Shown: positions 12,651 through 46,547 of the stretch, piece by piece
How positions within the stretch are numbered: position 1 is the first letter of the stretch
How the letters are laid out: each line of letters starts with the position of its first letter
From: Malacoraja senta
Lineage: Eukaryota
NCBI GenBank assembly: GCA_038087875.1
Contig: CM075994.1
Coordinates: 6,326,001 to 6,386,000, forward strand
Length of the DNA stretch: 60,000 nt
Reading direction: 5' to 3'
Notes under the pieces: model-generated
What the model saw: only the letters and a program-made list of their open reading frames with translations
Databases searched by the model: none
What the model was told of the DNA's origin: nothing
Translations under genes and position numbers: made by a program

Positions 12651-14004
12651 TCTATATTACTAAAACTCTCATCTTGTTTCTTTGTTATTCTGCGAGTGAG
12701 TGAGTAAATGAGTGAGATTCCGGAACTACGACAAAAAGGTACACGATAACGCTACAATTTTTGGACCACCTTACTCACAATTGTCTTGAGGTGTGTTTTT
12801 ATCAAGTTTCAGATTGATGATTTTTACAAATTATTCACATTTTTAACTTTACAAAATCCCACTTTAAGAAACATTTCTTCCATCTGCACACTGGCAATTA
12901 CAGCTATGACGTCACAATGGGATCCAAATTCTTGCTGGCCTTCCCTACAACAATGTTGCAATCACAGAACACTGAGTACTGCCAGCAAGTTTTTAAAGTT
13001 TAAAAACATTGAGGCTGAACAGGAGGGGAGGGGGGACGGGGGAGGGGGGGCGGTGCTGGGGGAGGCAGGGGGAGTGCAATTGGATTTTTTTTTAAAGTCC
13101 TGCCAGCAAGTCCAATTGGGAGGCTGAAGAGGAGGAGGAGGGAGTGCTGGGGGATAAAGGCTCTGTCTTACTGTGTTGCGGTCATCGGCGGTGAAGCGCG
13201 GCTTTGCCGGTAGAGTGGACCACACGGCAACGGCGAGAGCGCCGAGCCTATGCCACGGGAGCGCCGCACGGTGCTGCGCGGGGGCCGAGTGATTTAAATA
13301 CGGCTGGTCCCACGTGCTTGCGGTAAGTTAAAAAAAGGCCGGGCCGACTGCGATGACGTAATTTTGGATCTGCGGGGCTGTGGCGGCGGCCGTCCTGATC
13401 GCGGCGCTGTAGCGGTGGCTGTGGCAGCGGCCGTGCCACACACGTGACTCACTAGCGGCGGCTGTGGCGGCGGCCGTCCTGATCGCGGCGCTGTAGCGGT
13501 GGCTGTGGCGGCGGCCGTGCCGCACACGTGCCTCACTGGCGGAGGCTGTGGCGGTGCAAGTTCGACCCACGGCGCTCGAGCCACACTGGCGGCGGCTGTG
13601 GCGGCGGCCGTGCCGCACTCGTGCCTCACTGGCGGAGGCTGTGCGGTAGGGACATATTTTTGTACAGTGTTGGTTTTATTTTAGCACCGTGCGGTGTTGG
13701 GAAAACCGCCGCACGGCCCCGGAATTGTGCGTTTGACCGAGTGCGCGGTCTATGGCGGCCCAGGAGCGGTAGATTCTTCCCGTTTCGCCACCAATGACCG
13801 CAGACTCGTGAGACAGGCCTTTAAGAGGACATCAGCCACCCAGTGCAGTTGGGGGCTATGGGTGAGTGGTAGAATGTTGCGTTGGGGAGACAGGTTGAGT
13901 TGGGGGAATGGGTGAGTGGCGGAATATTGCGTTGGGGGAATGGGTTGCGTTGGGGGACCAGGCCTCCCGTGTAACAGGGAACTAACGGGTCCCACTTGGT
14001 CTAG
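12651..14004 (+). mobile_element. Non-autonomous Helitron-like element
   Basis: a|TCTATATTACTAAAA start, imperfect subterminal hairpin gggaact-aac-gggtccc, CTAG|t end, no TSD. Internal GC-rich repeats at 13370-13645. Confidence 0.65.
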
Positions 14005-14057: not shown

Positions 14058-14153
14058 TCAATGGATCTCCCCGTCTGCCTCAGGGGACTCACTTTGTCTC
14101 CGCTTCGGCTTCACATTCAGACACGCATAGACAATATCTTGCCCACCGAGCAC
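14058..14153 (-). CDS. Mucin-like dual-ITIM receptor, exon 6 (ITIM 2 and stop)
   Basis: Acceptor gcttgcttgtag, phase 0, VLGGQDIVYACLNVKPKRRQSESPEADGEIH*. An alternative internal gtgagt donor follows 14093. Confidence 0.8.
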   Translation of the reverse strand: MLGGQDIVYACLNVKPKRRQSESPEADGEIH

Positions 14154-14541
14154 CTACAAGCAAGCACAATTGAGATGGTGAAATACGTCTCCGTCGTGAA
14201 CTGGCTCGCCGCTCCCGGTGGAGTTGCTGCCTCACAGTGCCAGAGACCTGGGTTCGATCCTGACATCAGGTGCTGCCTGTTTCACCCTGTGACCTGCATT
14301 GGTTTTCTCCGGGTGAACCGGTTTCCGCCCACACTCCAAAAGACATACAAGTGTGTAGGTTGATTCGCTTTAGTACATATTTTAAATTTTCCCTAGTAAA
14401 TTTTCCCTAGTCGGCGCGGCCTCGGTGGGCCTGTTTCCGCGCTGTATCTCTAAACTAAACTGAACTATACATGCACGCAGTAATTTTACATGGCACCATG
14501 GAATCCCAAGTATTGATTGGTCGCTAGATAGGAAGAGAATT

Positions 14542-14569
14542 CTGAAGAAGGGTCTCAACCCGAAACGTC
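14542..14569 (+). ncRNA. Minimal hammerhead-ribozyme core in a Penelope-derived short repeat (representative copy)
   Basis: CTGAAGA-a-GGGT(ctca)ACCC-GAAACGTC. Other copies at 25969, 26694, 33361, 55377 (+) and 7472, 33844, 53190 (-). Helix I is weak. Confidence 0.5.
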
Positions 14570-15902
14570 AATCATTCCTTCTCTCCTGAGATGCTGCCTG
14601 ACTCGCTGAGGTACTCCAGCATTGTGTCTATCTTTGGCCCCTTGATTGTTGACCAAGACATGAATACAATGAGCTGCCAGAGGACATGGTTGAGGCAGGT
14701 ACAATAACAATATTGAAAATTCATTTGGACAGGTGCATGGAAAGGAAATGTTTAGTTGAGTATGGGGCAAACGTGGGTAAGTAGGAGCAGCTTTGATGGG
14801 GCATGTCGGTTGGCGTGGACAAGTTGGTCCGAGGGGCCTGTTTCTGTGCTGTATGACTCTGTGACTCTATGGGCTTAAGGACCTGTTTCTTTGCCCCATG
14901 ATGCCATTGTAATGCAGCACCAGTATCGCGTCAACATTGGAACATTGAACCGCTGTAATAACGCAACACATCATTCTCCACATTCACGCTGGAGACAATG
15001 TGTTACTCACCGTCCCCTCCCCTCTCCTTCCCCCTCTCTCCCTTCATCCCCGCTCCCACTCTCCCCGTCCTCTTCCCCCCTGTCTTTTAACCATTTCCTC
15101 AGCTCTCCACGTTGTACCACTCTTGAGATCACTCTTGCCCATGTCAACAATAGGCCCACCAGGGCAGGACACTGCCTGAGGTCATCTGTGGCCGGTCTTG
15201 CTCTGTCCTGGTCTTCTCTCGCCCCCAGCTCTTCACCCACCCCACTCCCCTCCCCCTATGCCCCATCCTCCTACACCCCCCCCCCCCGCCCACACCCGTT
15301 CTTTCTGAAGGAGACAGAAAAAATAAATCTGAACAAGTGCGCCGACTCGAACGTGGCCCACTCACATACTCTGGAGATTCTGCCTGACCCACTGAGTTAC
15401 AGGAGCGCTGCGTTTCTCCAGCACTTAGTACTAGAAGAGGCCCATCAGTTAACAATTCTCTTTCACTCACTCCCGGGCTATCGTTACCATTACTAGGTAG
15501 GATACACTACAACATTCATTAAGCTCTGAACTACATATTGTTGTTTTTGCACTATTATTGCTTTTTGTTTTTATGTGTACCCATGTGTGCGCGGGTGTGT
15601 GTATATATGTGTGTATGTATATGTGTGTATATATATATATCAGGCCCGTACGAAGCTTTTCAAAAAGGGGGGTGGCAAGGCAGATTACAAAAAATGTATG
15701 CGAAATAACTGCATACAGCGCATATCACAAGCGCGAAGCTGAAAGACCCTTGCGGCCGGGGTCCAGGGCCCACTTAAGGGCCCTGGAAGCTCTGGGGTTT
15801 TAGATGCTCTCTGGTGCATTCTGAGCCTTATTTTGGAGCATTTTTGCACCGAATTTATGACCAATATTTCAGAAGTAATTTTGGTTGAGTCAAGAGCAAT
15901 GA

Positions 15903-16102
15903 NNNNNNNNNNNNNNNNNNNNNNNNNNNNNNNNNNNNNNNNNNNNNNNNNNNNNNNNNNNNNNNNNNNNNNNNNNNNNNNNNNNNNNNNNNNNNNNNNN
16001 NNNNNNNNNNNNNNNNNNNNNNNNNNNNNNNNNNNNNNNNNNNNNNNNNNNNNNNNNNNNNNNNNNNNNNNNNNNNNNNNNNNNNNNNNNNNNNNNNNNN
16101 NN
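15903..16102. other. Assembly gap (200 N)
   Basis: Run of N. Confidence 1.
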
Positions 16103-16319
16103 GGACACGTACAAGCCCTGAACCCATGGTTGTGACCTTAGATGGAAGTGATGGTGAGATATCGAGCCATTAAAGGGGCACTTACTTGTCGAACTCACAG
16201 GACCATGAGGGACAAAGGCTGAATTTCCTCCAATTCCTAACAGGAGCCATCCTACAGAAAGAGCCCAGACAGGGGATTCTGACGGTGGCAAAAAGACGCG
16301 GGAGGGTGGGCGAAGATGA

Positions 16320-16965
16320 AAGTGGCGCGGGCCCAGCGGGGGTGGCGTGGGCCCAGCGGGGGTCAGCGGGGGTGGCATGTACCCAGCAGGGGTGGCGTGT
16401 GCCCTGCTGGGGTCAGCGGGGGTGGCGTGGACCCAGCAAGGGAGGCGTGGATCCAGTGGGGGTGGCGTGGACCCAGCGGGGGAGGCATGTACCCAGCGGG
16501 GGTGGCGTGGGCCCAGCGGGGGTCAGCGGGTGTGGCGTGTGCCCAGCTGGGGTCAGCGGGGGTGGCGTAGACCCAGCGGGAGAGGCGTGGACCCAGCGGG
16601 GGTGGCTTGGGCCCAGCGGGGGTGGCGTGGACCCAGCTGGGGTCAGTGGGGGTGGCGTGGACCCAGCGGGGGAGGCGTGGACCCAGCGGGGGTGGCGTGG
16701 GCCCAGCGGGGGTGGCGTGGACCCAGCGAGCGTCAGCGGGGGTGGCGCAGACCCAGCGGGGGAGGCGTGGACCCAGTGGGGTGGCGTGGGCCCAGCGGGG
16801 TGGCGTGGACCCAGCAGGGGTACAGCAGGGGTGGCGTGGACCCAGCAGGAGTCAACGAGGGTGGCGTGGACCCAGCGGGGGTGGCGTGGACCCAGCGGAA
16901 GTGGCGTGACCCAGCGGGGGTCCAGCGGGGGTGGCGTGTGACCAGCTAGGGTCAGCGGGGGTGGT
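16320..16965. repeat. GC-rich minisatellite with 20-bp and 30-bp units
   Basis: ggtggcgtggacccagcggg units, some with an added ggtcagcggg. Confidence 0.95.
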
Positions 16966-17764
16966 GTGGATAGAAGATGGCTTGGGCCCCACCGGCGGGA
17001 GGGAGGCGAGGGGAGCGGGCCGCATCGGCGTCTGGTGTTGGGGTTACAGACGCTGGGTTAAGATTCAGCCACTCCCGCCCGGCGATGGGAGAACGGTCTC
17101 ATGGTCGCATGGCTGGCCGTTGGGGGGGACCGATGCCTGCAATGCAATATTTCTACGTACCTGGAGTAGACACAAGGCATCGGGCCCAATGTTGGGAGTC
17201 AAATGGCAGTCTGATCCCGCCCGGGCCCACTGCGCACGCGCGGAGACGGCGTCATTTTGCGGCGTTTCCCCAACTGCGCAGGCGCAGATGGTCGAGTTTT
17301 TTCTCCCAAATCATCCAGCGTCCGGAACCAGAATTTCGGGCGATTTCCGACAAAGTGGAAACGCTGATTGCGCTCCGATTTTAACAAAAAATGTTCTCGG
17401 GATTTTTTCTTGCTCTGGAGGAAAAGGGGGGCGCGATCGCACCCAACGCACCCCCCCTTCGGACGGCCATGTATATATATATATACACACACACACTGTA
17501 TGTGTGTGTGTATATGTGTGTGCGAGTGTATGTGCGCGTGTGCGTGTGTGTGCGCGCACATGTGTATGTGTGAGTTTGTATGTGTATACACACACTGAAA
17601 TTACTTTTTCTCGTTTATTCTATTGTTTACATTGTACCATGTTTACACATTCTGTTGTGCTGCTGCAAGTAAGAATTTCATTGTTCTATCTGGGACGTAC
17701 GACAATAAAACCGCTTGACTCTTGGATTGCGGTCGCCAATTGTTAAAATGTTTGCTATTGGTAC

Positions 17765-17917
17765 CTTCTCCTGCTCTTCAGCAAACTGCCCGCGCGTCGA
17801 TACCGGGTCTACCAGTGAATCTTCGTGTGAATCCTCCCCGTCTCCCGAAGTCTCTCTACGTGTCCGCGCTGGTTTCACATTTACGCTCGCGTAGATGATA
17901 GTTTGTCCCCGGGGCAG
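17765..17917 (-). CDS. Mucin-like dual-ITIM receptor, exon 5 (ITIM 1)
   Basis: Acceptor ctctttccttgcag, donor AAG|gtacca, 153 nt, phase 0-0. Encodes LPRGQTIIYASVNVKPARTRRETSGDGEDSHEDSLVDPVSTRGQFAEEQEK. Confidence 0.85.
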
Positions 17918-18339
17918 CTGCAAGGAAAGAGAATTGAGACGGCCAAACGCCGTGTTGATATTTCAGCACCACAACAGACCTGAATTAACATTGAACAATA
18001 CTCTAACAACATTACATATATATCACACCGCACTCCGAGCAGCAGAATTATCAACGTGGACGTTGGGATAAACAGGACAATGCAGAACAATATTTCTACC
18101 CTGAGTATTTTTTCACGGTTTCATTTAAACTTCACACAGTATTTACATCTCAACACCATCACGGCACAGTGGCGCAGCGGCGCAGCTGGTGGAGCCGCTG
18201 TCTCACATCGTCAGGGACGCAGAGGCGATTCTGACCTAGGGTGTTGTCTGCGTGTCGCGTTTGTACGTTCTCCCTTTGATGGCGTGTTGTGTTTTCTCCA
18301 ACTCTTCCCGCTTCCTCCTACATTCCAAATGACCCTCTG

Positions 18340-18660
18340 TAGAGTAGGGAAGCGGTACACATACCCCGATTTGCATTGATGTTGCTGAAGTAGAGATGGT
18401 CGAAAACTTCAAATTCCTCGGAGTCAATATCACCAACAACTTCTCCTGGACCACCCATATTGAGGCAACGACCAAGAAGGCACAGCGACGCTTTACTTCC
18501 TTAGAAGGTTAGGAAGCTTGCTACAACACTCACCAACTTCTACAAATGCACCATAGAAAGCATTTTGTCAGGATGCATCTCAGCCTGGTTCGGAAACAGC
18601 TCCATCCAGGACCGTAAGAAATTGCCGCGAATTGCGGACACAGCCCAGGCCATCAAGAGT
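18340..18660 (+). mobile_element. Rex1/Babar-type LINE fragment that resumes at ~20070-20200 after the L1
   Basis: VENFKFLGVNI..TNFYKCTIESILSGCI motifs, degraded. Confidence 0.7.
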
Positions 18661-18669
18661 TCAAGAGAG

Positions 18670-20065
18670 TTTTATTTTTATTTATTTTTAAATTTTGATT
18701 AATATTTTTATTAGAAGCAAACATATTATAAAGTATAGGAACAAATTATAATAGAAAAAAAACTTTTCATATACATCAATCATACATTATTAAAATTGTC
18801 AATTGTCGATTAATTCTGCTTCTAGTGTTTTTTTTTATATAGATAGAAAAAGAGAGGTAGAAAGAAAAAAGCATTACAAATATCGAAAAAAAGAGGTGGA
18901 ATGAGTTATTTATAATACGTCATTGGAGATAAGTTCGTAGGTTATGAAATATAATTTTACATCTAATCCTGAGTTCAAGCTTCAGTTGGGTTTTCGTGCT
19001 GGGTCCATCTATCCCTTCAAATAGTTAATGAATGGAGCCCATATTTTAACAAAAAGTTCTTGTTTGTCCATTAAGACAAGTCTAATTCTTTGTAGATGTA
19101 GGGTCTCCGACATTTCCACAATCCACATTTTAATTGTGGGGGTTATAGGACCTTTCCAAAATATTAATATTATTTTTTTCCCAGTTATTATACTGTAGTC
19201 AAGGACGTTTCTTTGGCTTGTTGTGAGTGTTAAACTTTGTTCTGATATCCCAAGTATTATTAAATTTGAGTCTGGATCCAATTTAGTATTAACAACTTCA
19301 GAAATTATTTCAAAAATATCAATCCAGAAATTTTTGATTTTTATACAATTTGCAAAAGTATGTGTTAAATTGGCCTCTAGATGTAGGCATTTATCACAGA
19401 TAGGAGAAATATGTGGGAAGATTCTATAAAGTTTTATTTTGGAGTAATGTAATCTGTGTAAGACTTTAAATTGTATTAAAGCATGTCTGGCATTTAACGA
19501 GCATTGATGTATATGTTGTAAACTTTCGTCCCAAATGTCTTTCGTTATAGAGTGACCTAACTCATTTTCCGATGTGTGTCTATATAGTTCCATCGGTGGT
19601 ACCTCATTGTTTAAGAGGGTGTTATAAATATAAGCTATTAATTTTTCAGTGTTAGGATGCTTATTCAAACATTCATCAAGAATTTCTGGTTCCCTAGTCC
19701 TATATACTTGTGTATTAGATTTAACATAATCTCTAATTTGTAGATATCTGAAAAAATTATTTGAGTGTAGTCCATAATTTTGTTGTAACTCTTGAAAAGA
19801 CAGAAAGATGCCTTCCCTATAAAGATGTCCAATGTTATTAATTCCATAATTTTTCCATTGTATAAAACCTCTATCCAATATGGATGGCTTGAATAAAGGA
19901 TTATTTACAATGGGAAGACATAGTGGTATATTATTCAGTTTTAAAGCTTTTTTAAATTGTTTCCAAATTCGTATTCCACTATGTATTATAGGCTTTTCCT
20001 TATAGGTTATTTAATGCAATTTTGTGGGAGCAAATATAATCGAACCAATTTCAAAAGGTACAGAA
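18670..20065 (-). mobile_element. L1/Tx1-clade LINE, 5'-truncated (ORF2 C-terminus, 3'UTR, A-rich tail)
   Basis: 289-aa ORF with FQELQQNYGL, FFRYLQIR, IQFKVLHRLHY and a CDKC..HTFANC zinc knuckle. A-rich tail at ~18670-18710. Confidence 0.88.
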
Positions 20066-20883
20066 TTGTCATGCAAACCAACTTCCCTTCTACTGATTCC
20101 AGCAGCATAATCAAAGACGAGTCGCACCCTGGCCATTTCCTCTTCTCCCCTCTCCCATAAGGCAAAAGGTATAGAAGTGTGAAAACGCACACCTCCAGAA
20201 TCAGCCCCCCCTCCCCACAACCGCGCGTTGAGGGGACGAGACACAACGGCTCCCACTTGGTCTATATCTCGCTAAACCTATACTACCAGGTTAATTAAGA
20301 ATAGGGTGTAGGTCATTTAGCACTGAGATGAGGAAAAATCTTTTCACCCTGAGAATTGTGCACATGTGGAATTCTCTGCCACAGAAAGGGCAGTGGACGC
20401 CAATTCACTAGATGTTTTCAAACTAGAATTAGATATAGCTCTTCGGGCTAACGGAATCAAAGGATCATGGGAAAAAGCAGGAATGGGCTACCGATTTTGG
20501 ATGATCAGCCATGATCATATTGAATGGCGGGTCTGGCTTGAAGGGCCGAATGGCCTACTTCTACGCCTATTTTCTATGTTTCTATCGTATCTATCAACTG
20601 TAAATGGACTAAATTGTAATCATGTTTAGATTTTCTGCTGACTGGTTAGGACGAAACAAAATGCTTTTCACTGTGCCTCGGTACACGTGACAATAAACTA
20701 AACTGAACTGAACGGAACTGAGATTGTCTCTACTGTGTAAGTTAGAACTAGCGTGAATGGATGATCGCTGATCGGCGTGGTTTCGGTGAGTGGAAGGGCC
20801 TGTTTCCTTCCATGCTGTATCTCTTAAACCTCTAGCTCGGTAAACTGAACGAGCTCAAAGAACGAAGTGAAAATGACAAGTAC

Positions 20884-20948
20884 CTCGCTGTTCGATCGAC
20901 GAATAAAGTCAAAGGACCCATCAAAGCAGCTCGAATCCGTACAGGCGC
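20884..20948 (-). CDS. Mucin-like dual-ITIM receptor, exon 4 (juxtamembrane cytoplasmic)
   Basis: Acceptor ctatttccattttcag, donor GAG|gtactt, 65 nt, phase 1-0, linking exons 3 and 5 in frame. Encodes (G)ACTDSSCFDGSFDFIRRSNSE. Confidence 0.7.
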
Positions 20949-20969
20949 CTGAAAATGGAAATAGAAACC

Positions 20970-21955
20970 AAGAAAATAGGTGCAGAATTATGCATTTCGA
21001 CCCTTTAAGCCAGCGGCCATTCAATATGATCATGGCTGATCATCCAAAATCAGTACCCTGGTCCTGCTTTCTCCCCATATCTCTTGATTCCATTAGCCCC
21101 AAGAGCGATATCTAACTCTATTGAAAACATCCAGTGAATTGGTCTCCACTGTCTTATGTGGCACAGAATTCCACAGATTTGTTTGGGTTTTCATCCTTCT
21201 AAATTCCAGTGATTAATAGCCCAGTCGATCCATTCTTTCATCATATGTCAGTCCCGCCATCCCGGGAATTAACCTGGTGAACCTACGTTGCACTCCTTCA
21301 ACAGCAAGAATGTTATTCCTCAAATTGGGAGACTAAAACTGTACACAAACTCTGTTGTGGTCTCACTAGGGCCCTGTACAACTGCAGGGGGCTCTCCTTG
21401 CTAATCTGCTTCGATCCTCTCGCTATGAAGGCCAAAGTGCCATTTACTTTCTTCATTGCCTGCTGTACCTGCATGCTTACTTTCAATGACTGATGTACAA
21501 GGTTGCCCAATTCTCGTTGCACCTCCCCTTTTCCTAATCTGACACCATTCAGATAATAATCTGCCCTTGTTTTTGCCACCAAAGTGGATAACCTCACTTT
21601 TATCCACATTATATTGCATCTGCCAATCATCTGCCCACTCACCAAACCTTTCCAAGTCACACTGCAGCCTCTAAGCATCCTCCTCGCAGCCCACCCTGCC
21701 ACCCAGCTTTGTGTCATCCGCAAACTTGGAGATGTTACATTTAATTCCCTCGTCAAAATCGTTTATAATTTGTAAATAACTGGGGTCCCAGCACTGAGCC
21801 TTGTGGCACCCTACTAATCACTGCCTGCCATTCTGAAAAGGGACCCGTTAATTCCTACTCTTTGCATCCTGTCTGCCAACCAGCTCCCTATCCATGTCAA
21901 TCCCTTACCCCCAATACCATGTGCTCTAATATTGCACACTAATCTCTTGTGTGGG
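20970..21955 (-). mobile_element. CR1 RT/3' fragment
   Basis: SKFADDTKLGG, WADDWQMQYNVDK and LYRALVRP motifs plus 3'UTR. Confidence 0.9.
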
Positions 21956-22862
21956 ATTGGAATGGAACTGAAACACAAGCGAACTCTTTAAAATTAACTA
22001 CGCTGGACATTCATATATCAGGGCGGCACGGTTGCTCAGCGATAGATTTGCTTCCTTACAGCGCAAGAAACCTGGGTTCGATCCTGACCACGGGTGTTGT
22101 TTGTATGGAGTTTGTACGTTCTCCCCGTAGCTGCGTGGGTTTTCTCCTGGTGCTCCAGTTTCCTCCCACAACTAAAGGTTTGTTGGATAATTGGCTTGGT
22201 ATAATTGTAACTTACCCCTAGTGTATGTAGGGTAGTGCTAGTGTACGGGGATCGCTGGTCGGCCTGGACTCAGTGGGCCGAAGGGCCTGTTTCCGTGCTG
22301 TATCTCTAAACTAAATCTGTAACCGTTAGATCAATTAATCTCAGCACCATTTAAACAGCTCAAATCGAAATCAACTCGTTTATATTGTAATGAACAGGGG
22401 TTAGGCTCAGAACAACGATTTACGATTTCAATTAAATTGTGATCAATGCTTTCAGATTATAGTGAAATAGATTAGATTGAAATCAGCCGTTTTATGTTAA
22501 AGGAATTTATAATGAAGTTAAAGTTTCGATGTACCAATGAAATGAAAATCAGACTGTGATTCGTGAAGCAAGTCTGCATGTAATCAGAGAAAATGATAAT
22601 CAGTGGTAATTAAATAACAATTAGACGCCCCATTTGTTTTAGATGATATAATGGAAATTAGAGTGACATTTATTATTTTGTATTGCAATTAAGCAGGGAG
22701 CTGATTTGCGAGGCAGGATTGTAGCTTACATTAAAACAGATAAAATCCTGATAATTCAGAATGTTATATGAAGAAGCGTTTCGGCCCAAAACGTTGCCTA
22801 TCTCCTTCGCTCCATAGATGCTGCTGCACCCGCTGAGTTTCTACAGCATTTTTGTGTACCTA

Positions 22863-24325
22863 AAATTATAAAAGGACTGGACTAGATGCAGGAAAAATGT
22901 TCCCAATGTTGGGCGAGTCCAGAACCAGGGGGCACAGTCTTAGAATAAAGGGGACGCCATTTAAGATTGAGGTGAGAAAAAACGTTTTCACCAAGAGAGT
23001 TGTGAATTTGTGGAATTCCCTGCCACAGAGGGCAATGGAGGCCAAGTCACTGAATGGATTTAAGAGAGAGTTCGATAGAGCTCTAGGGGCTAGTGGAATC
23101 AAGGGATACGGGGAGAAGGCTGGCACGGGTTATTGATAAGGGACGATCAGCCATGATCACAATGAATGGTGCTGCTGGCTCGAAGGGCTGAATGGCCGCC
23201 TCCTGCACCTATTTTCTATGTTTCTATGTGCTGCCTGATCCGCTAAGTTACTCCAGCATTTAGCGTCCTTTTGTGCATGAAGGAGCACCGGCACTTTTTT
23301 ATTTCGACAGGAAAGATTTATTAGGAACCTGAGAGGGCAAATTACCTTATTGGGGCATTTATTTACCTAGAGGGTGGCGAGTATATGGAACGAGCTGTCC
23401 GAGAGGGTAGTTGAGGTAGGTACTACAGCAACATAAAAAAACACATTTGGACGTACATGGATAGGAAAGTTTTGGAGGAATATGGGCCAAACACGGTCAG
23501 ATGGGACTAATGTAGATGATGCATGTTGGTCGGCGTGGGCAAGTTGGGAAAAGGGCTGTTTCATAGAGCATAGAGCATAGAACAATATAGCACAGGAATG
23601 GGTCCTTTGGCCCACAATGTTTGTGCCAAACATGATGCCCATTTAAACCGATATCATCTGCCTGCACATGATCCACATCCCTGTTTCCTGTGCACTTCCA
23701 TCAGCCTATCCAAAGAGCCTCTTAAACGGCGCTATTGTATCTGCCTCCACCACCACTCCAGGCACCCACCACCCTGTGTGTAAAAAAACTTGCCACGCAC
23801 ACCTCCATTAAACTTTCCCCCTCTTACCTTATAGCTAAGTGCTCGAGTTGGGCATTTCCATCCGTGGAGAAAGGTTCTAAATGGTCTACCATATCTATGC
23901 CTCTCATAATTGTCTATACTTGTTTAAGACGTTGTATAATGTGTTGCTGAGGCCGCATTTGTATAAGACGCTGATGAGGCCGCATTAAGGGTATCGTGTT
24001 CAGTTCTGGCCACCATGTTATAGAAAAAGATATTGTCAATCTAGAACAGGTTTAAGGAGAAAAGGAAAAGATTTAATAGAAATCTGAGAGGTAACTTTTT
24101 CCACACAAAGGGTGTATGAAAAAAGATGCCAGATGAGATAGTTGAGGCAGGGACCATTTAAGAAACAGTTAGACAGGTACATGGATAGGACAGGTTTGGA
24201 GGGATGTGGATCAAACGCGGGCAGGTGGTACTAGTGTAGATGGGGCATGTTGGTTGGTGTGGACAAGTTGGGCTGAACGGCCTGTTTCCACACTGCATCA
24301 CTCCATGACTCTAAAACTCTATGAC
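22863..24325. mobile_element. Cluster of CR1 3' fragments in both orientations
   Basis: SRTRGHSLRIKG and VVNLWNSLP motifs plus several CR1 3'UTRs. Confidence 0.8.
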
Positions 24326-24516
24326 TTCTATCAAGTCTCCCCTCAAACTCCGATGTTCCAGGAAATGTTCTTGAGAGGCTTCCATGTTGTATTACTCTAT
24401 AACTCTGTGCGCTGGCATCTGAAAAACCTGGGCAGTTACCAATCATCGAGTAATCCTTTGACCGGTCCCTTGCCCGATATCTAAGGAACACCTCTGGAAG
24501 GCTCTCAGTCACTCAC

Positions 24517-24639
24517 CGATCCGATTTTTAACCAGGTACAGGCAGGACAATGCGGCGATCCCGAACACAAGTCCAAGCGCGGCGGCGATCAAAATGTCAC
24601 TTCCAGTGAGCGAGGGGCAATTCGGTCCGCTGTCACCGT
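24517..24639 (-). CDS. Mucin-like dual-ITIM receptor, exon 3 (transmembrane)
   Basis: Acceptor ctctttctgatag, donor G|gtgagt, 123 nt, phase 1-1. Encodes (D)GDSGPNCPSLTGSDILIAAALGLVFGIAALSCLYLVKNRI, a 22-aa hydrophobic helix followed by KNR. Confidence 0.88.
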
Positions 24640-24942
24640 CTATCAGAAAGAGTTGTTACAAAACGGGTCGCTGGTAAACCACTACATTTGCTCTATTGGT
24701 CGTTGGTCAGGGTTCATATGTGTGAAACATGCCCAGAGTATTGTGAGCGGGTGGGGGGGCCCTACTGGGAAATTGTCACAGTGGCGTATCGGTAAAGTTG
24801 CTCCCTCACAGAGCCAGAACTAGTGTATGGGGTGATCGCTGGTCGGCGTAGACACGTCACGGGAAAAGGATGCAATAGGAATCTGAGGGGTAACTTTTTC
24901 ACACAAAGGGTGGTGGGTGTATGGAACAAGCTGCCGGCGGAG

Positions 24943-27900
24943 CAGGGCCGGATTTAGATGAAGTGGCTGTTCCACTTTTGAGGCCCCTCCCAATCCCCCA
25001 CCCCACGACTAGAGGAAGATGGTCCACCAGATTGACACCAAGTTGCAGCCGAGCGTGGCCAATGAGATAAAGGGCTGGAAAGCTGCGCTTTTTATTTAAT
25101 TATTTATTGCCAGTGCTAGTGTCGAATTATCGGCTTAAAACACTATTATTCTGAAATGGAGGGCAAGGAAAATTACTGAAGGGTTGTTCAGAGACTACAG
25201 TGCGTTGTGACAGCATATGTAAGAAAGGCCTATGTCAAAAATATTATACACCTTGCAGGGCTCTCACTAAACTTTTATTTTCTGTTGTCAACCGGGCAAC
25301 CTCGGCAGCTTTTTAAGTTGCCAAATGACAGTTTAGGTGGTCATTTAAGACGGCTTGCATGACGCATGCGATAATGTGCTCGGACGAAGTGCGTAGTTAC
25401 CAGTCGGAATTATGCTCAATGAAGCATTCACATATAATTTCTGCTTCAAATAAAGTCACAAACTAAACATATTAACCAACCAAGACATGATATATACCAC
25501 AATGACATGCAGCAAAATTATAATACAGTATCTGAACTCTTTTTACACATTGCAAGGAATGCAATTTCTATTATTTCTTTCCACTTCCAAACAAAAATGT
25601 GGTTGGATTATTCTGCATATGATCAACTTCGGTGAGACTAAGCGCAGGCTTGGCGATCGCTTCGCACGACACCTCCACTCAGTTCGCAATAACCAACCTG
25701 ACCTCCGGTGGCTCAACACTTCAACTCCCCCTCCCATTCCGTATCCGACCTTTCTGTCCTGGGCCTCCTCCATGGCCAGTGAGGCCCACCGCAAATTGGA
25801 GGAGCAGCACCTCATATTAGCTTGGGTAGTTTACACCCCAGCGGTATGAACATTGGCTTCCCTAATTTCAGGTAGTCCTTGCTTTCTCCTTCCCCTCCCA
25901 TTCCCAGCTCTCCCACAGCCTACTGTACCGCCTCTTCCTTTCTTTTTCGTGTCCCCCCCGACATCAATCTGAAGAAGGGTATCGACCCGAAACGTCGCCT
26001 GTTCCTTCGCTTCATAGATGCTGCCTTACCCGTTGATTTTCGTCAGCTTTTATGTCTACCAATGGGATCCCACCACTGGCCACATCTTCCCATCTCCTCC
26101 CCATTGGCTTTCCACAGAGACCGCTCCCTCCGTAACTCCCTGGTCAATTCGTCCCTTCCCACCCAAACCACCGCCTCTCCTGGCACTTTCCCTTGCAACC
26201 GCAGGAAATGCTACACTTGTTGCTTTACCTCCCCCCTTGACTCCATTCAAGAACCCAAGCAGTCTTTCCAGGTGTGGCAGAGGTTTACCTATGCCTCCTT
26301 CAACCTCATCTATTGCATCCGCTGCTCTAGGTGTCAACTGCTCTACATCGGTGAGACCAAGCGTAGGCTTGGCGATCGCTTCGCCCAAAACCTCCGCTTG
26401 GTTCGCAATAACCAACCTGATCTCCCGGTGGCTCAGCACCTCAGCTCCCCCTCCCATTCCGAATCCGACCTTTCTGTCCTGGGCCTCTTCCATGGCGAGA
26501 GTGAGGTCCACCGTAAATTGGAGGAGCAGCACCTCATATTTCACGGGCAGTTTACACCCCAGCGGTATGAACATTGACTGCTTCAATTTCAGGTAGTCCC
26601 TGCTTTCTCCTCCCCTTCCCAGCTCTCCCTCAGCCCATTGCCTCCGCCTCTTCCTTTCTTCTTCCCGTCCCCCCCCCCCACCCTCACATCAGTCTGAAGA
26701 AGGGTCTCGATCCGAAACATCGCCTATTTCCTTCGCTCCATAGATGCTGCCTCACCTGCTGAGTTTCTCCCGCAATTTTGTCTACCCATTCACACAAGTT
26801 CTGTTATCCCACTTTCCTCACCCACTCCCTGCACATTAGGGGCAATTTTACAGAGACAAGTTAACCTACAAAGCCAATGTGTCTTTGGGATGTGGGAGGA
26901 AACCCACACACTTGCAGGGAGAATGTACAAATTCAACACAGACAGTGCCCGAGGACAGGATCGAACACAGATCTCTGGCGTGTGAGGCAGCAAGTCTACC
27001 AGCTGTGCCACTATATATTCTTTTCCAACACACAAAATTATACGTTGATAACTTTGATTACTAAAAAAATGAAAATAACCATTTTCAGTCTTAAATCTCC
27101 AATTGATGCTATGTCCCCCTTTACAGTTACTGTATGTTTTAATTCAGTTCAAGACTGTGGGGCAGTACATTGGCCATAAAGTTGCTGCCTAAAAGTGTCT
27201 CAGACCCGGAATTGATCCTGAATATGGGTGCTGTCTGTATGGAGTTTGCTTCTTTTCCCTTTGATCGCATGGGTTTTGTCCGGGTGCTCTTGTTTCATAG
27301 AAAACATAGACATAGAAAATAGGTGCAGGAGTAGGCCATTCGGCCCTTCGCGCCTGCACCGCCATTCGATATGATCATGGCTGATCATCCAACTCAGCAT
27401 CCCATCCCTGCCTTCTCTCCATACCCCCTGATCCCTTTAGCCACAACGGCCACATCTAACTCCCTCTTAAATATAGCCAATGAACTGGCCTCAACTACCT
27501 TCTGTGGCAGAGAATTCCACAGATTCACATATCTCTGTGTGAAAAAATGATTTTCTCATCTCGGTCCTAAAAGTCTTCCCTCTTATCCTTAAACTGTGAC
27601 CCCTAGTTCTGGACTTCCCCAACATCGGGAATAATCTTCCTGCATCTAGCCTGTCCAACCCCTTAAGAATTTTGTAAGTCCAGTGGTAAATCCGGCTCTG
27701 CGGAGGAGGTAGTTGAGGCAGGTACAATCGCAACGTTTAAGAAACATTTAGACAGGTACATGATAGGATAGGTTTAAGAAACGTTTAAGAAACATTTAGA
27801 CAGGTACATGATAGGATAGGTTTCCTTCCACATTCCAAAGGTGTGCAGGAACCTATTTCAGACCCATCCCAAAATGTAATATTTTCCTTTTGTCCAGCGA

Positions 27901-29315
27901 TTCTGTCTGACCTGTTTTCAAGCTTTTTGTGTCTATCTTCAGTTTAAACCAGAAATCTGCAGTTCCTTCCTACACACACGATACTATACGATAGAATTTT
28001 ATTAATCCCAGGAGGGCAAATTGTGTGTGTGTGTGGGTATATATATTACACGCACGCACGCGCGCGCGCACACGCACGCGCACACGCACACACATATATA
28101 TTTATATAGTTATATATTCATATATAAATATACACCGTTTTGTTTTCTCGTTTATAACATTGTTTACAGAGTACTATGTTTACATAGTCTGTTGTGCTGC
28201 TGCAAGTAAGGATTTCTTTGTTCTAACTGGGCCATGAGAATAAAACACACTTGACTCTTGACTTACGTCGCTAATGTGTGGGATAGAACTAGTGTACAGG
28301 TGATCGGTGGTTGGCGTAGACTCGTTGGGCCGAAGGGTCTGTTTCCACGCTGTATCTTTAAACTAAACTAAAAACACTAACACCAGAGGGAGTCTAAAGA
28401 AGGGTCTCTACCCGACACGTCACCCAATTTCTTCTATCCAGAGTTGCTGGCTGCTCCATGGAGTTCTCCCGCACAATTAAAGCATGGAATAGTCTTCACC
28501 CTACCACAGTTACCCAACCAGACGCAACTAAATTTAAGGTAGCTCTTTTTCCCCCCAAGAACACTTTTTTACTTAAGTCCAAGTCAAGAGTCAAGATAGT
28601 TTTATTGTCATGTGTCCCAGATAGGACAATGAAATTCTTGTTGCTGCAGCACAACAGAATATGTAAACATAATACAGAACAGGAGATAAAAGTTCAGTGT
28701 GTTTATATACCATAGACCATATATATACACAATAAATAAGCAGCTAAAATGCAATAGGCTGTTATTGTTCAGAGTTTGGAGTTTGGTGATGGACCCTCCA
28801 CCACCTGCAGTTTAAATTCCATTTAGAATATTTTTGGAGGACCAGGAAACCAGAAGCAAGAGTTACTCCAGGGAGTTACTCCAGCTCCAGGGAGTGATTC
28901 GGCGTTGGTTTTCAGCGGTCGAGGCGAGGCGGCGACCGGACAGCAATGCCGGCCAGATCTCCCACAATTCAAAGCTAGGGAGAAAGTGCCCAGCGCCGAC
29001 CAGTTGCCGTGGCAGTGCGCATGTGCACGGCGGCCGATGATGTGCTGGCCGTGGTTGTGCGCATGTGCGTGGGGATGGTGTGCTGGCCGTAGCAGTGCGC
29101 ATGTGCAAGGCGGCCGGCTGTGCCGGCAGATGAGGAGCGAGCGGAGAGCGGAGACCCGGCGGCCCGGACAGGGATACGGATGGCGGGCGGAGACGGCGAG
29201 TGGCACAGAGAGAGAGAGATAGAGAGGGGGGCCCGCTCAGAGTTGAACAGCAGGCCCCCTAGATTTCGACGCCCCAGGCTTCAGCCTATGAATCCTAGTG
29301 GTAAATCCGGCTCAG
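24943..29315. mobile_element. hAT-like element with nested insertions, inserted into a CR1 3' end
   Basis: Termini cagggccggattt / aaatccggctc(t/a)g. 8-bp flanks cggcggag (24935) and cggaggag (27701 and 29316). Confidence 0.55.
25625..26790 (+). mobile_element. Penelope-like element, partial tandem (GIY-YIG plus pLTR, twice)
   Basis: NLIYCIRCSRCQLLYIGETKRRLGDRF..RKLEEQHLI. The 3' segment occurs twice (25625-26060 and 26350-26790). Confidence 0.88.
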
Positions 29316-30859
29316 CGGAGGAGGTAGTTGAGGCAGGTACAATCGCAACGTTTAAGAAACATTTAGACAGGTACATGATAGGATAGGTTTAAAGGGATAT
29401 GGGCCGAACACATATTGGCCGGTATGGGCAGGTTGGGCCGAAGGGCTGTTTCCACGCTGTGTGACTATGACTCTTTGACAATCTCCTTTGAACTTTGCTC
29501 CTCTGAATGAAAAGATGGGCCCTCTAGTCTTTGACATTTCCACCCTGGAAAATGGTTCTGATTGTCCACCCCCTCGATGCCAATCATAATGTTGCATACT
29601 TCGATCAGGTCTGGTCGAATGTACAGCGATGGACACGATTTAGTAGGGAGGAAGGTCTTTGAAGGCTACACTTTGTTTCGCGAAACCGCAGCGAGAGTAT
29701 GAGACCTGCACACTTGGCAGCAAGACTCACAACTGGGGAGTCAAAGATAGGTCATCTACCCACAGACATCCCTCGGTCTCAGCTTAATGCAAGGCGGTGA
29801 CTTGGTCAGAGGGGAAATGCCTGTGGGAGTGGGCGATCTGCCATCGCCCGCACCTCCCCCATTCTAAGCCACGGCCAGTGTCACACGGCATCGGCCTGAA
29901 TGTGAGACATCTGTTGTTTCCTTCCCAAATTTACTGCAGCTGAGCAGGCGGCCATTTGGCCCACAGAGTCGCTGCTGGTCCGTGGGAAGATGGAATCAAT
30001 TAGTCGCTCTACTCGCCCCCAATCTTTGGGGCTCGGGAGTTTCCCGAAGCGAGAAGATAATAATGAGATCACAAAGTGCTGGAGAACCTCAGCTGGTCAG
30101 GCAGCATCGCTGGAGAACATGGATAGATGAGGTGCAGCGGTAGAGTTGCTGCCTTACAGCGCCAGAGACTCGGGTTCGAGTGTGGAGACTACGGATTCGG
30201 CCTGTGTGGAGTTTGTACGTTCTCTCTGTGACCCCGTGGGGTTTCTCCGAGTTTTCCGGTTTCCTCCATCATCACAAAGGCGTGAAGGTATTTCGGGTAA
30301 TTGGCTTCTGTAAATCTGTCCCTGGAGTGTAGGATACTGATAATGTACGGGGTGATCGCTGGTAGGTGGGGACTCAGTGGGCCGAAGAACCTGTTTCTGC
30401 ACTGTATCTAGTCTAATGTCTGAAGTCCAGTGACGGTTCGGGCCGGGACCCCTTCTTCAGATCACCCGCAAAAGTGGACGCAGAAGATAAACACAAAATG
30501 CTGGAGTAACTCAGCGGGTCAGGCAGCATCTCTGGAAGAAAAAGGAATAGGTGACCTTTCGTGTCGAGACCCTTCATCAGAATGAGAATCAGGGGCGAGG
30601 GATATTGAGGTATGAGAGGTACAGAACAAAGCAGTGCCAGCATAGATCACGCAGGAAAGGTGGAGCCCACAATGGTCCATTGTTGGCTGGGGACGAGGTG
30701 ATAACGAAAGAGTACACACGGTGAAATTAGCAAGAGAAGCAGGGTGGGTGAGGGACATTGACGGAGGGAATGCAAGGCTTACCAACGCAGGTTGCATTAA
30801 AAAAGTGGGATTGAGTGGGGTCGGGAAGGGTTAGGACGGAATTCTAATACCTGATCACA

Positions 30860-31505
30860 AGGTCATAATGTCATAATTGATAGGAACAGAATAAGGCCAT
30901 TTAGCCTATCAAGTCTACTCCACCACTCAATCATGCCTGATCTATCTCTCCCTCCTAACACAATTCTCCTGCCTTCTCCCCATAAATCCTGACACCCGTA
31001 ATAGTCAGGAATCTCTGCCTTAAAACATATCAATTGACTTGGCATCCACAGCCTTCTGTGGCAAAGAATTCCACAGATTCACCACCCTCGGATTAAAGAA
31101 ATACCTCCTCATCTGGGTCTCTATTCATTGGAGAGGAGGAAGATGAGGGGTGATCTTATTGATATGTGTAAAATCATGAGAGGAAAAGATCGGGTAGATG
31201 TACAGAAACTCTTGCCCAGAGTAGGGGATTCGAGGACAAGAGGACATAGGTTCAAGGTGAAGGGGAAAAGATTTCATAGGAATCTGAGGGGTAACTTTTT
31301 CACACTAAGGGTGCTGGGTGTCTTGAACAAGCTGCCAGAGGAGGTAGTTGAGGCTGGCGTTATTCCAACGTTTAAGAAACTGTTAGACAAGTACATGGAT
31401 AGGACAAGTTTGGAGGGATAAGGACTAAGCGTAGGCAGGTGGGGCATGTTGGCCGGTTTGGGCTGAAGGGCCTGTTTCCGCACTATTGCTCTATGCTCTA
31501 TGACT
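30860..31505. mobile_element. Two CR1 3' fragments in opposite orientation
   Basis: ERRKMRGDLI..RTRGHRFKVKG..LPEEVVEAG on the plus strand and a CR1 3'UTR on the minus strand. Confidence 0.85.
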
Positions 31506-31572
31506 CTTAAAGGAACGTCCTTTAATTCTGAGACTATGACCTCTTGTCCTAGACTCTCCCACTAGTTTTTAC

Positions 31573-31707
31573 CTGTGGATTTGGTCAGACTGCTCCATGA
31601 TGTATCGGTTATAGCCTCATTCATAACTGTGGTCTCCGTCATCGTTCTCGCTCCCCTAGCTGTCTCCATTTTACCCGTCGGCGCCGAAATGACCAGGACA
31701 CCAAAGG
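31573..31707 (-). CDS. Mucin-like dual-ITIM receptor, exon 2 (end of signal peptide plus Thr/Ser-rich ectodomain)
   Basis: Acceptor ctctctttttcacctgacatttgtttag, donor CAG|gtaaaa, 135 nt, phase 1-1. Encodes (T)FGVLVISAPTGKMETARGARTMTETTVMNEAITDTSWSSLTKST. Confidence 0.85.
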
Positions 31708-32480
31708 CTAAACAAATGTCAGGTGAAAAAGAGAGAGGAAATTCAACGCCATATTCAGCTCAAGCAAACACAAACAGATTAATATTCTCTCACCAACACT
31801 GTACAATGTTATGGGTTTAGTCCCTATTTCCCTTTATCCAGTATCCACCAGCGAATATTAGCGGCGGATGTTCTGCCTCACAGCGCCAGAGACCCGGGTT
31901 CGATCCTGACTACGGGTGCTATCTGTACGGAGTTTGAACATTCTCCCCGTGACCACCTGGGATTTCTTCGAAATCTTCGGTTTCCTCCCACACTCCAAAT
32001 GCGTACAGGTTTGTAGATCAATTCGCTAAAAATAAAAATTGTGCCGGTCGGTACAGACTCGGTGGGCCGAAGAAGCAGTTTTCGTGTACCTCAAAGCTAA
32101 ACTGAAAAAAAAAACTCGCACTTCGTTTTTCACTCAAGATTCCAGCATGAAGTCACAGTCATATAATCATACAGCGTGGAAAAAGCCACCTTCAGCCCAA
32201 ATTGCCCACACCGACCAACTTGCCCCATTTACACTAGTCCCACCTGCTTGCGTTTGGCACATGTCCCTCTGAACCTATCCTATCCATGTATTTATCTAAA
32301 TTGTTCTTAAACGTTGGAATTATACCTATCTTCTCTGGCACCTACCACACTTTGTGTTAACAAGTTGCCCCTCAGGTTCCTATTAAATATCCCCCCCCCC
32401 CACCCCCACCCAACGTAAACCTATATCTCACTTTCTCCCAAAATAAACAAAAAACTACTTCCCTCCATCATGGCACTTAC

Positions 32481-32508
32481 TCAGTATTACAAGGTACACG
32501 GGAAGCAT
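32481..32508 (-). CDS. Mucin-like dual-ITIM receptor, exon 1 (start and leader)
   Basis: agaagATG with A at -3, MLPVYLVIL plus A|gtaagt (phase 1). Joins exon 2 to give the signal peptide MLPVYLVILTFGVLVIS/A. Confidence 0.8.
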
Positions 32509-33950
32509 CTTCTGCTGTCCAACCCCGATGCCAATTCAGGCTCACTATCCCCGGCGTCAAGCTGAGTTTATCTGGTGGGTTTCTCTCTTGATATTCTTGT
32601 CCAGTGGCCGACAGATATATAAATAATTTTCGCGTTGTAGCATGGGTGTGAATTTTAATTTAAATGGCCCGTGCTCCTTTCCCCACCCACTTCGCATCTC
32701 CAATTAGAGATGGAACACATACTATCCTTTATCTCTGTTAACCTTTTCCAGCGCAGCGGTTGATTTGCAGCGGCTGAGATCTGGGTTCGATCCTGACCTC
32801 GGGTGCTGCCTGTGTGGAGTTTACACGTTTTCCATGTGAATGCGTGGGTTTTCTCTGGGTGCTCCGGTTTCACACACTCCAAAGACGTACTAGTTTGTAG
32901 GTTTATTGACTAACTTTAGTTTAGATATACCGTGCGGAAACAGCCCCTTCCCCCCCCCCCCCCCCCCCCCACCGAGCCCGCACCGACCACGATCCCCGCA
33001 CACTACCACTATCCGACACACACTGGGGACAATTTGCAATTATACCGAAGCCAATTAACTTACGAAACTGAACGTGTTTGGAATGTGGGAGGAAACCGAA
33101 GATCTCAGAGAAAATCCACAGGGGGAACGTGCACACGCTGTACAGACCACATAGGCAGTCCCTGTCGTCTCGGCTATATTTTCAACTCTGACAGCACCCG
33201 TTGTCAGGATCGAACCAGGGTCTCTGGCGCTGTGAGGCAGCAACTGTACTGCTGCGCCACCGTGCCGCACTACTTTGGGAAAACAATTGCAAAAGTGTCC
33301 CCAGTACAAGTGTATGGGGTGATCGCTGATCGGCACAGACTTGAGGGACTGTTTCCGCGATGAAGAAAGGTCTCGACCCGAAACGTCACCCATTCCTTCT
33401 CTCCAGAGACACTGAGTTACTCCAGCATTTTGTGTCTATTGTCTGTATCCCTCAGTCCGAAGCCTCTCCCCTCGCTTGATTCTATCAGCCTACCAGCGTG
33501 GGTTTCCTCCGAGATCTTCAGTTTCCTCCCACATACAGGTCTGTACCTGACTGGCTTGGCCGAAGTGTAAATTGTCCCGAGTATGTTTAGGATAGTATAA
33601 ATGCGCGGGGATCGCTGGTCGGTGCGGACTCGGTGGGCCGAAGGGCCTGTTTCCACGCGGTATCTTTAAACTAAACTAAAGTCTTATTGTTATTATTGCA
33701 TTATTATTGTTTTTTTCTATGTACATATATGCCTATTAAGTGCGTATGTGCGCGAATATATTTATGAATATAAAAAAAGATAGACACAAAATGCTGGAGT
33801 AACTAAGCGGGACAGGCAGCATCTCTGGAGATAAGGAATGGGTGACGTTACGGGTCGAGACCCTTCTGCAGACTGTCCCGCTGAATATAGCATTTAGTGT
33901 CTATATTCGGTTTAAAACACCATCTGCAGTTCCTTCATATTCATATATAT

Positions 33951-34917: not shown

Positions 34918-34987
34918 ATGGCCAGGAGAGTTCCTGAGATTCACTCCCTCATCGGGATATTTTGGCTGCTGTTGAGCGACCCTGGAG
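34918..34987 (+). pseudogene. CD2/SLAM-family locus, leader exon
   Basis: gacATGG Kozak context, MARRVPEIHSLIGIFWLLLSDPG plus G|gtgagt (phase 1). Continues in frame as GLGQTA in the V exons. Confidence 0.75.
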
Positions 34988-35447
34988 GTGAGTCCATGCC
35001 TTGAGCTAGGGATGGGGGTGGCGGTAGGGTGGAAGAAGGTGTGCTACATAGAACAGTACAGCACATGAACAGGCCATTCAGCCCACAACATCCATGCCGA
35101 ACACGATGCCAAGTTAAAGTAAGGTCCTCTGCCTGCATATAATACATATCAATGCATTCCCTGTATATCAATTAGCCTTTCCAAAAGCCACACAAACCCC
35201 GCTATCGTATCTGCCCTCCACCGCCACTTCCAGCAGCGCAATCCAGACACCAACCACTCTTGGTGTAAACAAAAACATGTGGTGCCCCAGTCATCTCCCA
35301 CATCCCAAAGGCGTGCATGTGTGTAAGTTAATTGCCCACAGTGCGTATGGAGTGGATGCGAAAGTGGAATGATATAGAACCTGCATGATCAGGTGATCCA
35401 TGGTTGATGTGAATTTGGTGGGCTGAGGGGCCTGTTTCCATGCTCGC

Positions 35448-35485
<38 letters not shown>

Positions 35486-35549
35486 CGTCCGTCCGTCCGT
35501 CCGTCTGTCTGTCTGTCTGTCTGTCTGTCCTTATCCATCCACCTATCCA

Positions 35550-36190
35550 GGTGGTACAAATACCTGGGAGTGTACATGGACAGTAAACTGGACTGGTCCA
35601 GGAACGCTGAAGCAATGTACAAGAAGGGACAGAGCTGCCTGTACTTTTTGAAAAGGCTCAGCTCCTTCAACATCTACAGTGAGATACTGCAGATGTTCTA
35701 CCAACCGGTGGTAGCCAGTGCCATCTTCTTCACTGCCGTGTGCTGGGGCAGCAGGGCGAAGGCTGCGGATGGTAACAGGATCAATAAACTCATCAGGAAG
35801 ACTGGCTCCGACCTGGGGACAGAGTTGGATTCATGGGAGGTCGTCTTGGAGGGGAGGATGCTCCTCAAACTGCGTAGCACCTTGGACAATACAACTCACC
35901 TCCTCCATGACACATGGGTCAACATGAGGGGCACCTTCTGCAACTGACTGCTTCCACGAAGATGCAGGACAGAACGTCACAGGAGATCCTTCTTCCCTGT
36001 GGCTATCAAACATTACAACTCCTCCCCCTCTGTCGTGGTGTAGACTGAGACTGACACCCCCCCCCCCTCAATCTTTGCACATCCCCAAAGCCTACCAACT
36101 TATCACTTGATTTTCATGTTTCATGTTTAATTATTTTATGACTGTTGGCAAATTAATTTCGCTCCTGGGATAAATAAAGTTCCATTGTTT
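35550..36190 (+). mobile_element. Rex1/Babar-type LINE 3' fragment
   Basis: YKYLGV..LDWSRN..LYFLKRLSSFN..MFYQPVVASAIFF motifs. Confidence 0.8.
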
Positions 36191-36257
36191 CATATCGTAT
36201 CTATCTCAAAGCTTTTCACGGTACCTCGGTACATGTGACAATAAACTAACCTAAATT

Positions 36258-46535: not shown

Positions 46536-46547
46536 ACCTTCCTGCTG

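Follow-up and report, generated by a model that had tools for sequence, protein, structure and literature searches.

Does a cartilaginous fish possess an inhibitory receptor gene with two tyrosine motifs and no immunoglobulin (Ig) domain? The question is raised by a 60,000-nucleotide stretch of the genome of the skate Malacoraja senta (GenBank assembly GCA_038087875.1, contig CM075994.1, forward-strand positions 6,326,001 to 6,386,000; here called the window and numbered from its first letter), which lies on a contig of 11.9 Mb in a genome of 1.94 Gb. A first-pass annotation, made from the letters alone, had drawn attention to six small islands on the minus strand that could be spliced into a reading frame for a 199-amino-acid (aa) membrane protein that carries a pair of ITIMs (immunoreceptor tyrosine-based inhibitory motifs). 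We find that this six-exon gene is probably real, judging from the DNA, and we put at roughly one in two the probability that it would encode, by analogy with known proteins, a small, dimeric, lipid-anchored and glycosylated inhibitory adaptor bringing SHP phosphatases to the membrane.

The six-exon model and its predicted protein

The predicted gene consists of the following parts, in the order of transcription.

32509..32760, minus strand: candidate promoter and 5' untranslated region (UTR), with an AT-rich box some 110 nt ahead of the start codon; function inferred
32481..32508, minus strand: coding part of exon 1, 28 nt, phase 1, with the start codon and the signal peptide's first half
31573..31707, minus strand: exon 2, 135 nt, with the remaining signal peptide and the Ser/Thr-rich stalk
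24517..24639, minus strand: exon 3, 123 nt, with Cys62, the transmembrane helix of residues 70-91 (about 24530-24595), the pattern A73xxxG77xxxG81, and Cys87
20884..20948, minus strand: exon 4, 65 nt, phase 1 to 0, with the membrane-proximal tail, Cys98 and Cys103
17765..17917, minus strand: exon 5, 153 nt, with ITIM 1 (IIYASV) at 17882-17899
14058..14153, minus strand: coding part of exon 6, 96 nt, with ITIM 2 (IVYACL) at 14118-14135 and the stop
13675..13680, minus strand: candidate polyadenylation signal, 377 nt downstream of the stop and the only AATAAA or ATTAAA within 3 kb past it

All coordinates of the six islands proved correct on recomputation. Every intron runs from GT to AG (ten ends), the phases are 1, 1, 1, 0 and 0, and the spliced frame of 600 nt gives 199 aa and a stop, with 12 stops in each of the other two spliced frames. 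Compared with every GT across the gene, the five donors rank between the 89th and the 99th percentile, by approximate donor weights; the five acceptors, compared with every AG, rank between the 89th and the 99.6th. An internal GT also stands in frame after base 33 of exon 2 (31673-31674, minus strand) in the window copy, and is absent in the second copy described below; if it were used, most of the stalk would be deleted and the ectodomain would become LST1- or SIT-sized.

The recomputed protein has each element first ascribed to it, namely a signal peptide, an ectodomain of about 52 aa with 18 Ser/Thr, a 22-aa transmembrane helix and the motifs IIYASV and IVYACL. A leader of 17 aa, with a signal-like hydrophobic stretch at residues 6-16, crosses exons 1 and 2 directly into the stalk. 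The 52 ectodomain residues are 35% Ser/Thr (against 17 of 106 residues in the tail) and include three Pro, no repeats, and a lone juxtamembrane cysteine, Cys62. The single helix (residues 70-91) presents a small-xxx-G-xxx-G face, with G77 and G81 invariant in all four copies of exon 3, and Cys87, Cys98 and Cys103 lie at or just inside the membrane. A homodimer model of the exon 3 peptide scored 0.06 against a mark of 0.32, a result that bears on neither side. The tail has only two tyrosines, Tyr126 and Tyr177, each within an ITIM, the motifs being 51 residues apart.

Both motifs fit the ITIM consensus (S/I/V/L)xYxx(I/V/L) (PMC12151841) and both have Ala at pY+1, a residue that promotes SHP-1 binding according to PMC8631942, which also gives IVYASL as the ITIM of BTLA, one or two residues from each of ours. 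Shuffling the tail produced two ITIMs in 0.16% of cases and one or more in 8%. Exons 5 and 6, however, can be aligned with 69% of their nucleotides identical, the likeness reaching into the acceptor, where 19 of 25 intron bases agree. The score is well beyond those of 1000 shuffles, and by this alignment exon 6 is an old duplicate of exon 5. Because the two exons derive from one, the two ITIMs are not independent evidence and the 8% figure is the fairer; it falls within the 25% filter of PMC11460946 but exceeds the 5% usual in most known receptors. The exon duplication is far older than the split between the window copy and its nearest relative (dS, the synonymous divergence, 0.09), and the gene therefore probably predates the species.

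Copies, selection and the search for relatives

Exon searches of the genome returned three matches to exon 5, four to exon 3, two each to exons 2 and 6 and three to the promoter region, all within 150 kb. The candidate promoter and 5' UTR are present in all three copies, at 91% and 84% identity. Copy B, 70 kb away, retains all six exons and all ten splice dinucleotides. Its exon 1 is identical to that of the window copy (28 of 28 nt), and its exon 2 has 14 substitutions and one in-frame insertion of 3 nt. Copy B has also acquired a sequon for N-glycosylation, and its frame, shifted by a deletion of 5 nt past ITIM 2, runs on to 321 aa. Copy C is broken, with a shortened exon 1, exon 3 in two altered pieces, and exon 5 alone; the same genome searches found no exon 2, 4 or 6 in it. 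ITIM 1 is retained in all three copies (as IIYASL in B and C) and ITIM 2 in both copies that could show it.

Run on the pair of window copy and copy B, a comparison of non-synonymous and synonymous rates (dN/dS) counted 13 synonymous changes at 147 sites and 15 non-synonymous at 429, a ratio of 0.38 (Fisher p=0.014). Mismatch is 4.5% in the exons, 7.2% in collinear intron blocks (p=0.017) and 6.4% in the immediate flanks (p=0.11), and the changes fall 8, 6 and 13 on the three codon positions, a third-position excess of 13/27 (p=0.079). Together these values give a moderate signal of purifying selection on the predicted reading frame. Exon 5 taken alone among the three copies has synonymous/non-synonymous changes of 2/3, 3/6 and 1/5 in the ITIM frame versus 1/4, 4/5 and 3/3 in the other frame.

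The part of intron 4 just before exon 5 (17918-18146, minus strand) behaves differently from its surroundings: about 230 bases are 98-99% identical in all three copies, above exon 5 or the other introns (93%), which suggests a regulatory element or recent gene conversion.

The copies also bear on what the ectodomain might do. The first-pass annotation had left the choice between a sialomucin-like and an adaptor-like (LST1, SIT) protein, and of these the adaptor analogy is the better fit, because of the lone juxtamembrane cysteine, the GxxxG-type helix, the inner cysteines and a stalk that is poor in Pro and only 35% Ser/Thr. A ligand-driven sialomucin receptor, whose stalk O-glycans would be bound by selectin-, Siglec- or C-type-lectin-like lectins on other cells so that clustering triggers the ITIMs, would account for the concentration of Ser/Thr in the ectodomain rather than the tail, for the cleavable leader and the 52-aa ectodomain, which exceed what LST1 has, for the sequon gained in copy B, and for exon 2 changing fastest between copies (14 of 135 bases), as under outside pressure. 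Yet the ectodomain dN/dS is 0.36, with no positive selection seen, the stalk is short, with few Pro and no repeats, and the Pfam family Glycophorin_A (PF01102) matched neither the exons nor the locus; we consider such a receptor unlikely.

An ordinary Ig-superfamily inhibitory receptor, with an Ig exon that was missed or was lost only recently in this lineage, would be compatible with the 1-1-1 phases, which could accept an Ig exon, and with a contig rich in Ig genes; the split leader and the short phase 1-to-0 exon before an ITIM exon may be KIR/LILR/CEACAM-like. The claim that the protein lacks an Ig domain has nevertheless held up. Pfam found none in the exons, and none lies in introns 1 and 2 of either intact copy, where five open phase-1 stretches of at least 60 aa with a plausible acceptor were none of them Ig-like; intron 2 of copy B is only 1.1 kb long. 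A scan of the window's minus strand for Ig motifs gave one match, which is not an Ig domain. The sole gap in the assembly falls within intron 5, thus on the cytoplasmic side; at this place copy B is gapless and offers no candidate exon. The exon searches of the genome found local copies only and no Ig-bearing parent. Compared in the predicted frame with 36 SLAM-like proteins, the exons showed no similarity beyond E 0.03. A missed or recently lost Ig exon is, in our estimate, quite improbable.

That the gene can be assigned to no named family also stands, since Pfam and the searches for relatives returned none; as for protein relatives more broadly, no characterised gene was matched, and the single-exon queries found no orthologue. 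All homologue and Pfam tests used single exons, so distant kin, including shark or ray orthologues, may fall below their thresholds. With that scope, none of 11 candidates from comparing exon 5 with longer proteins was accepted, the exon 3 alignment gave no relatives among 2882, the profile of exons 5 and 6 gave three matches among 1.84 billion representatives and none was accepted, and the ESM Atlas held no usable match for exon 5 and only scores of 0.82 for exon 3. As a control, SLAM neighbours searched for in that collection were recovered from one shark, three rays and three skates. The best match of the ITIM-exon profile was rejected as motif mimicry: it is an effector secreted by Bartonella that contains seven repeats of DIVYAQV type. 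The other two, a bacterial protein with lectin repeats and a fish protein with Ig repeats, were rejected because they matched outside any ITIM. Among sequencing runs, none of RNA was listed as containing the words around exon 5; between 0.24 and 0.48 of these words are present in six runs from three organisms, runs of unrecorded kind that are not evidence. We found no account of this gene in the literature searched, which left subscription journals and supplements outside its scope.

SLAM neighbours and the annotated use of exon 5

Head to head with the predicted gene lies a SLAM-family pseudogene, which begins 2.4 kb from the ITIM gene's start codon on the opposite strand.

34918..48474, plus strand: SLAM-family pseudogene, in the order leader, IgV, IgC, second IgV, transmembrane, tail
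34918-34989, plus strand: leader exon
36703-37029, plus strand: IgV, with frameshift and stops
37535-37828, plus strand: IgC, with a stop
38346-38675, plus strand: second IgV, with a stop
40443-40560, plus strand: transmembrane exon
48309-48474, plus strand: tail exon, with a frameshift

A SLAM leader exon stands opposite each of the three ITIM copies, 2-4 kb away where exon 1 is in place, and the three ITIM/SLAM units have blocks of intergenic DNA in common. Intact relatives of the SLAM neighbour have SLAMF6 and CD150 as their best solved-structure matches, and their identity to Leucoraja and Amblyraja SLAM-like proteins, 88-90%, marks the animal as a skate; seven SLAM-type IgV exons, whole or nearly so, lie between 6.21 and 6.50 Mb of the contig. 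The head-to-head placement suggests co-expression with SLAM-family receptors. A weak likeness of the ITIM protein's helix to one type of SLAM leader (E 0.012-0.05) was rejected at the DNA level, where 38 of 300 shuffles equalled its score.

One exon of the gene has already entered a database, in another guise. Six of the 36 SLAM-like proteins, all isoforms of one Leucoraja erinacea RefSeq gene (XP_055522183, -184, -186 to -189), start with exon 5 off-frame: their N-termini contain 50 residues from exon 5 in another frame, 44 of them identical to copies B and C, and the match begins at the predicted exon 5 acceptor and stops at the predicted donor, followed by a SLAM IgV exon. Exon 5 therefore exists in a second skate genus, with both of its ends independently annotated. 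The first five residues of these models match a further feature of the window, which the window copy shares with copy B and which copy C has in altered form.

18147..18159, minus strand: cryptic donor ending a repeat in intron 4 that resembles a short interspersed element (SINE), 229 nt upstream of exon 5

The off-frame product would be leaderless, its best 9-residue hydropathy being 0.41 versus 2.8-3.0 in true SLAM leaders, and the off-frame reading of exon 5 meets two stops in the window copy; the L. erinacea models are therefore best taken for stray or read-through transcription of a layout like that of copy C, and are probably read-through or an annotation artefact. Absorption of exon 5 into SLAM models explains only part of the gene's absence from databases.

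The off-frame use opens the reading that the six-exon protein is not made at all, the unit being silent or decaying and its exons serving mainly stray, repeat-started or read-through SLAM transcripts. The L. erinacea models do open with an exon that ends in a SINE, continue with exon 5 and then enter a SLAM IgV exon, copy C shows just such a layout, its exon 5 lying upstream of a SLAM gene on the same strand, and one of the three copies is broken and another frameshifted near its end. Several further observations weigh, like these, against the adaptor gene that we favour. The only annotated use of any of the six exons is in the other frame. No protein in the predicted frame, and no six-exon model, was found in the collections holding the proteins of L. 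erinacea, A. radiata and R. longicauda, and this absence from three annotated skates counts against strong expression. The six-exon transcript is a prediction, the selection signal comes from a single pair with 28 changes, and exon 5 alone among the three copies does not favour the ITIM frame. ITIM matches are frequent in transmembrane proteins, with more than 1600 estimated in man (PMC11460946). The frameshift behind ITIM 2 in copy B and the breakage of copy C imply a family that turns over fast. Finally, the SLAM gene is dead in the window unit and looks intact in unit C, where the ITIM copy is dead, and the pairing may therefore be mere co-duplication. On the other side, the alternative frame gives a leaderless protein and in the window copy is interrupted by two stops, the closest SLAM IgV found on the same strand as the window's exon 5 lies 130 kb downstream of it, and the purifying selection on the whole frame, together with the retention of all splice sites, does not fit long decay. 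We regard a protein that is not made as rather unlikely, and retain the adaptor gene as our reading of the locus.

A Pfam scan of 103 of the 423 longer low-copy open frames in 200 kb around the locus returned only mobile-element domains and one sub-threshold UBA match; within that scope, which took in no short exons, the ITIM and SLAM genes and mobile elements are all that was recognised, and SLAM is the only synteny marker. Within the window there are a Tc1/mariner transposase with a stop (3196-4317, plus strand); two distinct 48-nt tandem arrays (10860-12206) of about 10 units each on opposite strands, 1.9-3.2 kb past the stop codon of the ITIM gene; a fragmented, presumably DIRS-like retroelement (44393-47744, minus strand) with gag-like, reverse transcriptase/RNase H and recombinase-like frames, the reverse transcriptase identified by Pfam; and, inside the 3' region of the SLAM pseudogene, a nearly whole long interspersed element (49356-53109, minus strand) with ORF1-like, endonuclease and reverse transcriptase parts. 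Elsewhere on the contig, at 89528-441806 and 6805912-6806166, there are more IgV exons of CD2/SLAM type, which lack the usual pair of cysteines; clusters of this kind number at least three on the contig.

Known systems and the proposed working of the protein

The closest parallel in plan is LST1, which has a dimerisation cysteine outside the membrane, one helix, a palmitoylation site and two ITIMs binding SHP1 and SHP2 (PMC8111073). The skate protein shares with LST1 (PF05083) the absence of any Ig or lectin domain, the ectodomain cysteine, the one helix, the juxtamembrane cysteine and exactly two ITIMs in the tail. It differs in that LST1 has 97 aa, a very short ectodomain and a place in class III of the major histocompatibility complex (MHC), whereas the skate protein has 199 aa, a leader, a 52-aa Ser/Thr stalk and a place in a SLAM cluster. 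Four exon peptides and exon 4 matched no Pfam family, and none of the four genome matches of the PF05083 model lies at the locus, both tests using single exons with low sensitivity. None of 78 MHC class I matches is on the contig of the ITIM gene and most are on small unplaced contigs; class III genes were outside this search. Among them, at G000:C2938:644508-645131 and 617101-617367, alpha1 and alpha2 regions of MHC class I type occur within one intronless 502-aa frame and another match sits in a 1254-aa frame, and many near-identical MHC class I-like exons lie on small contigs.

SIT1 has a leader, a small ectodomain with a cysteine link, a tail ITIM and several further tyrosine motifs. The skate protein resembles SIT1/TRIM (PF15330) in the leader (as in SIT1), the small ectodomain with a cysteine and the ITIM tail; unlike SIT1, with its additional tyrosine motifs, its tail has two tyrosines, both in ITIMs. 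The PF15330 model had no match at the locus and two weak matches below the cut-off elsewhere, a search that is hence without a positive control. The likeness to BTLA lies in the tail motif only, IVYASL being one residue from IIYASL (copies B and C) and from IVYACL; BTLA possesses an Ig domain and pairs its ITIM with a switch motif (ITSM), and a likeness of six residues is no evidence of kinship. The MDIR/CD300-like receptors of skates form a multigene set of activating and inhibitory members, defined by V-type Ig domains (PMC3031540); unlike these, BTLA and the KIR/LILR-type receptors, the skate ITIM gene has no Ig domain. With SLAM/CD2 genes it has in common the cluster, the head-to-head co-duplication and the exon shared off-frame with the L. 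erinacea models, while SLAM genes have IgV and IgC2 domains and a TIYDEI switch-type motif and show no homology in the predicted frame. The plan is that of an LST1/SIT-type adaptor with an added Ser/Thr stalk, the single-exon sequence tests for the LST1, SIT and glycophorin families having failed.

On this plan the protein might work as follows. The stalk would be O-glycosylated, the unpaired Cys62 would link two chains into a disulfide homodimer, and Cys87, 98 and 103 at the inner face may be palmitoylated. Src-family kinases near active receptors would phosphorylate Tyr126 and Tyr177, and the ITIMs could then be bound by a tandem SH2 pair, either that of SHP-1, which Ala at pY+1 favours, or that of SHP-2/SHP-2L; our search for tyrosine phosphatases, made at the level of the family, was too general to name SHP genes. 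The bound phosphatase would raise the threshold of leukocyte activation with no need of a ligand of its own, as in LST1, and signals of SLAM-family receptors may be among those damped.

A more specific version would make the gene an independent LST1-like adaptor of cartilaginous fish that gained its second ITIM by exon duplication, shares a bidirectional promoter with SLAM as a two-gene module and was missed by annotation partly through absorption into SLAM models. In such a module the SLAM gene would be the Ig sensor and the ITIM gene its detached inhibitory tail; several annotated SLAM isoforms lack any tyrosine motif themselves. As a whole we hold this version to be quite improbable.

Fast-evolving orphan ITIM proteins are expected in fish immune clusters, Ig-less adaptors with two ITIMs are a design already known in mammals, and no long-standing question is settled by this gene. 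No LST1/SIT-type Ig-less adaptor from cartilaginous fish was found in the same literature search. The locus does illustrate concretely how protein databases can miss an immune gene, with one of its exons lying within a neighbour's RefSeq models in the wrong frame. If the protein is expressed and binds SHP phosphatases, the Ig-less inhibitory adaptor design would be present in the oldest lineage of jawed vertebrates, probably by independent origin, and tied to a SLAM cluster.

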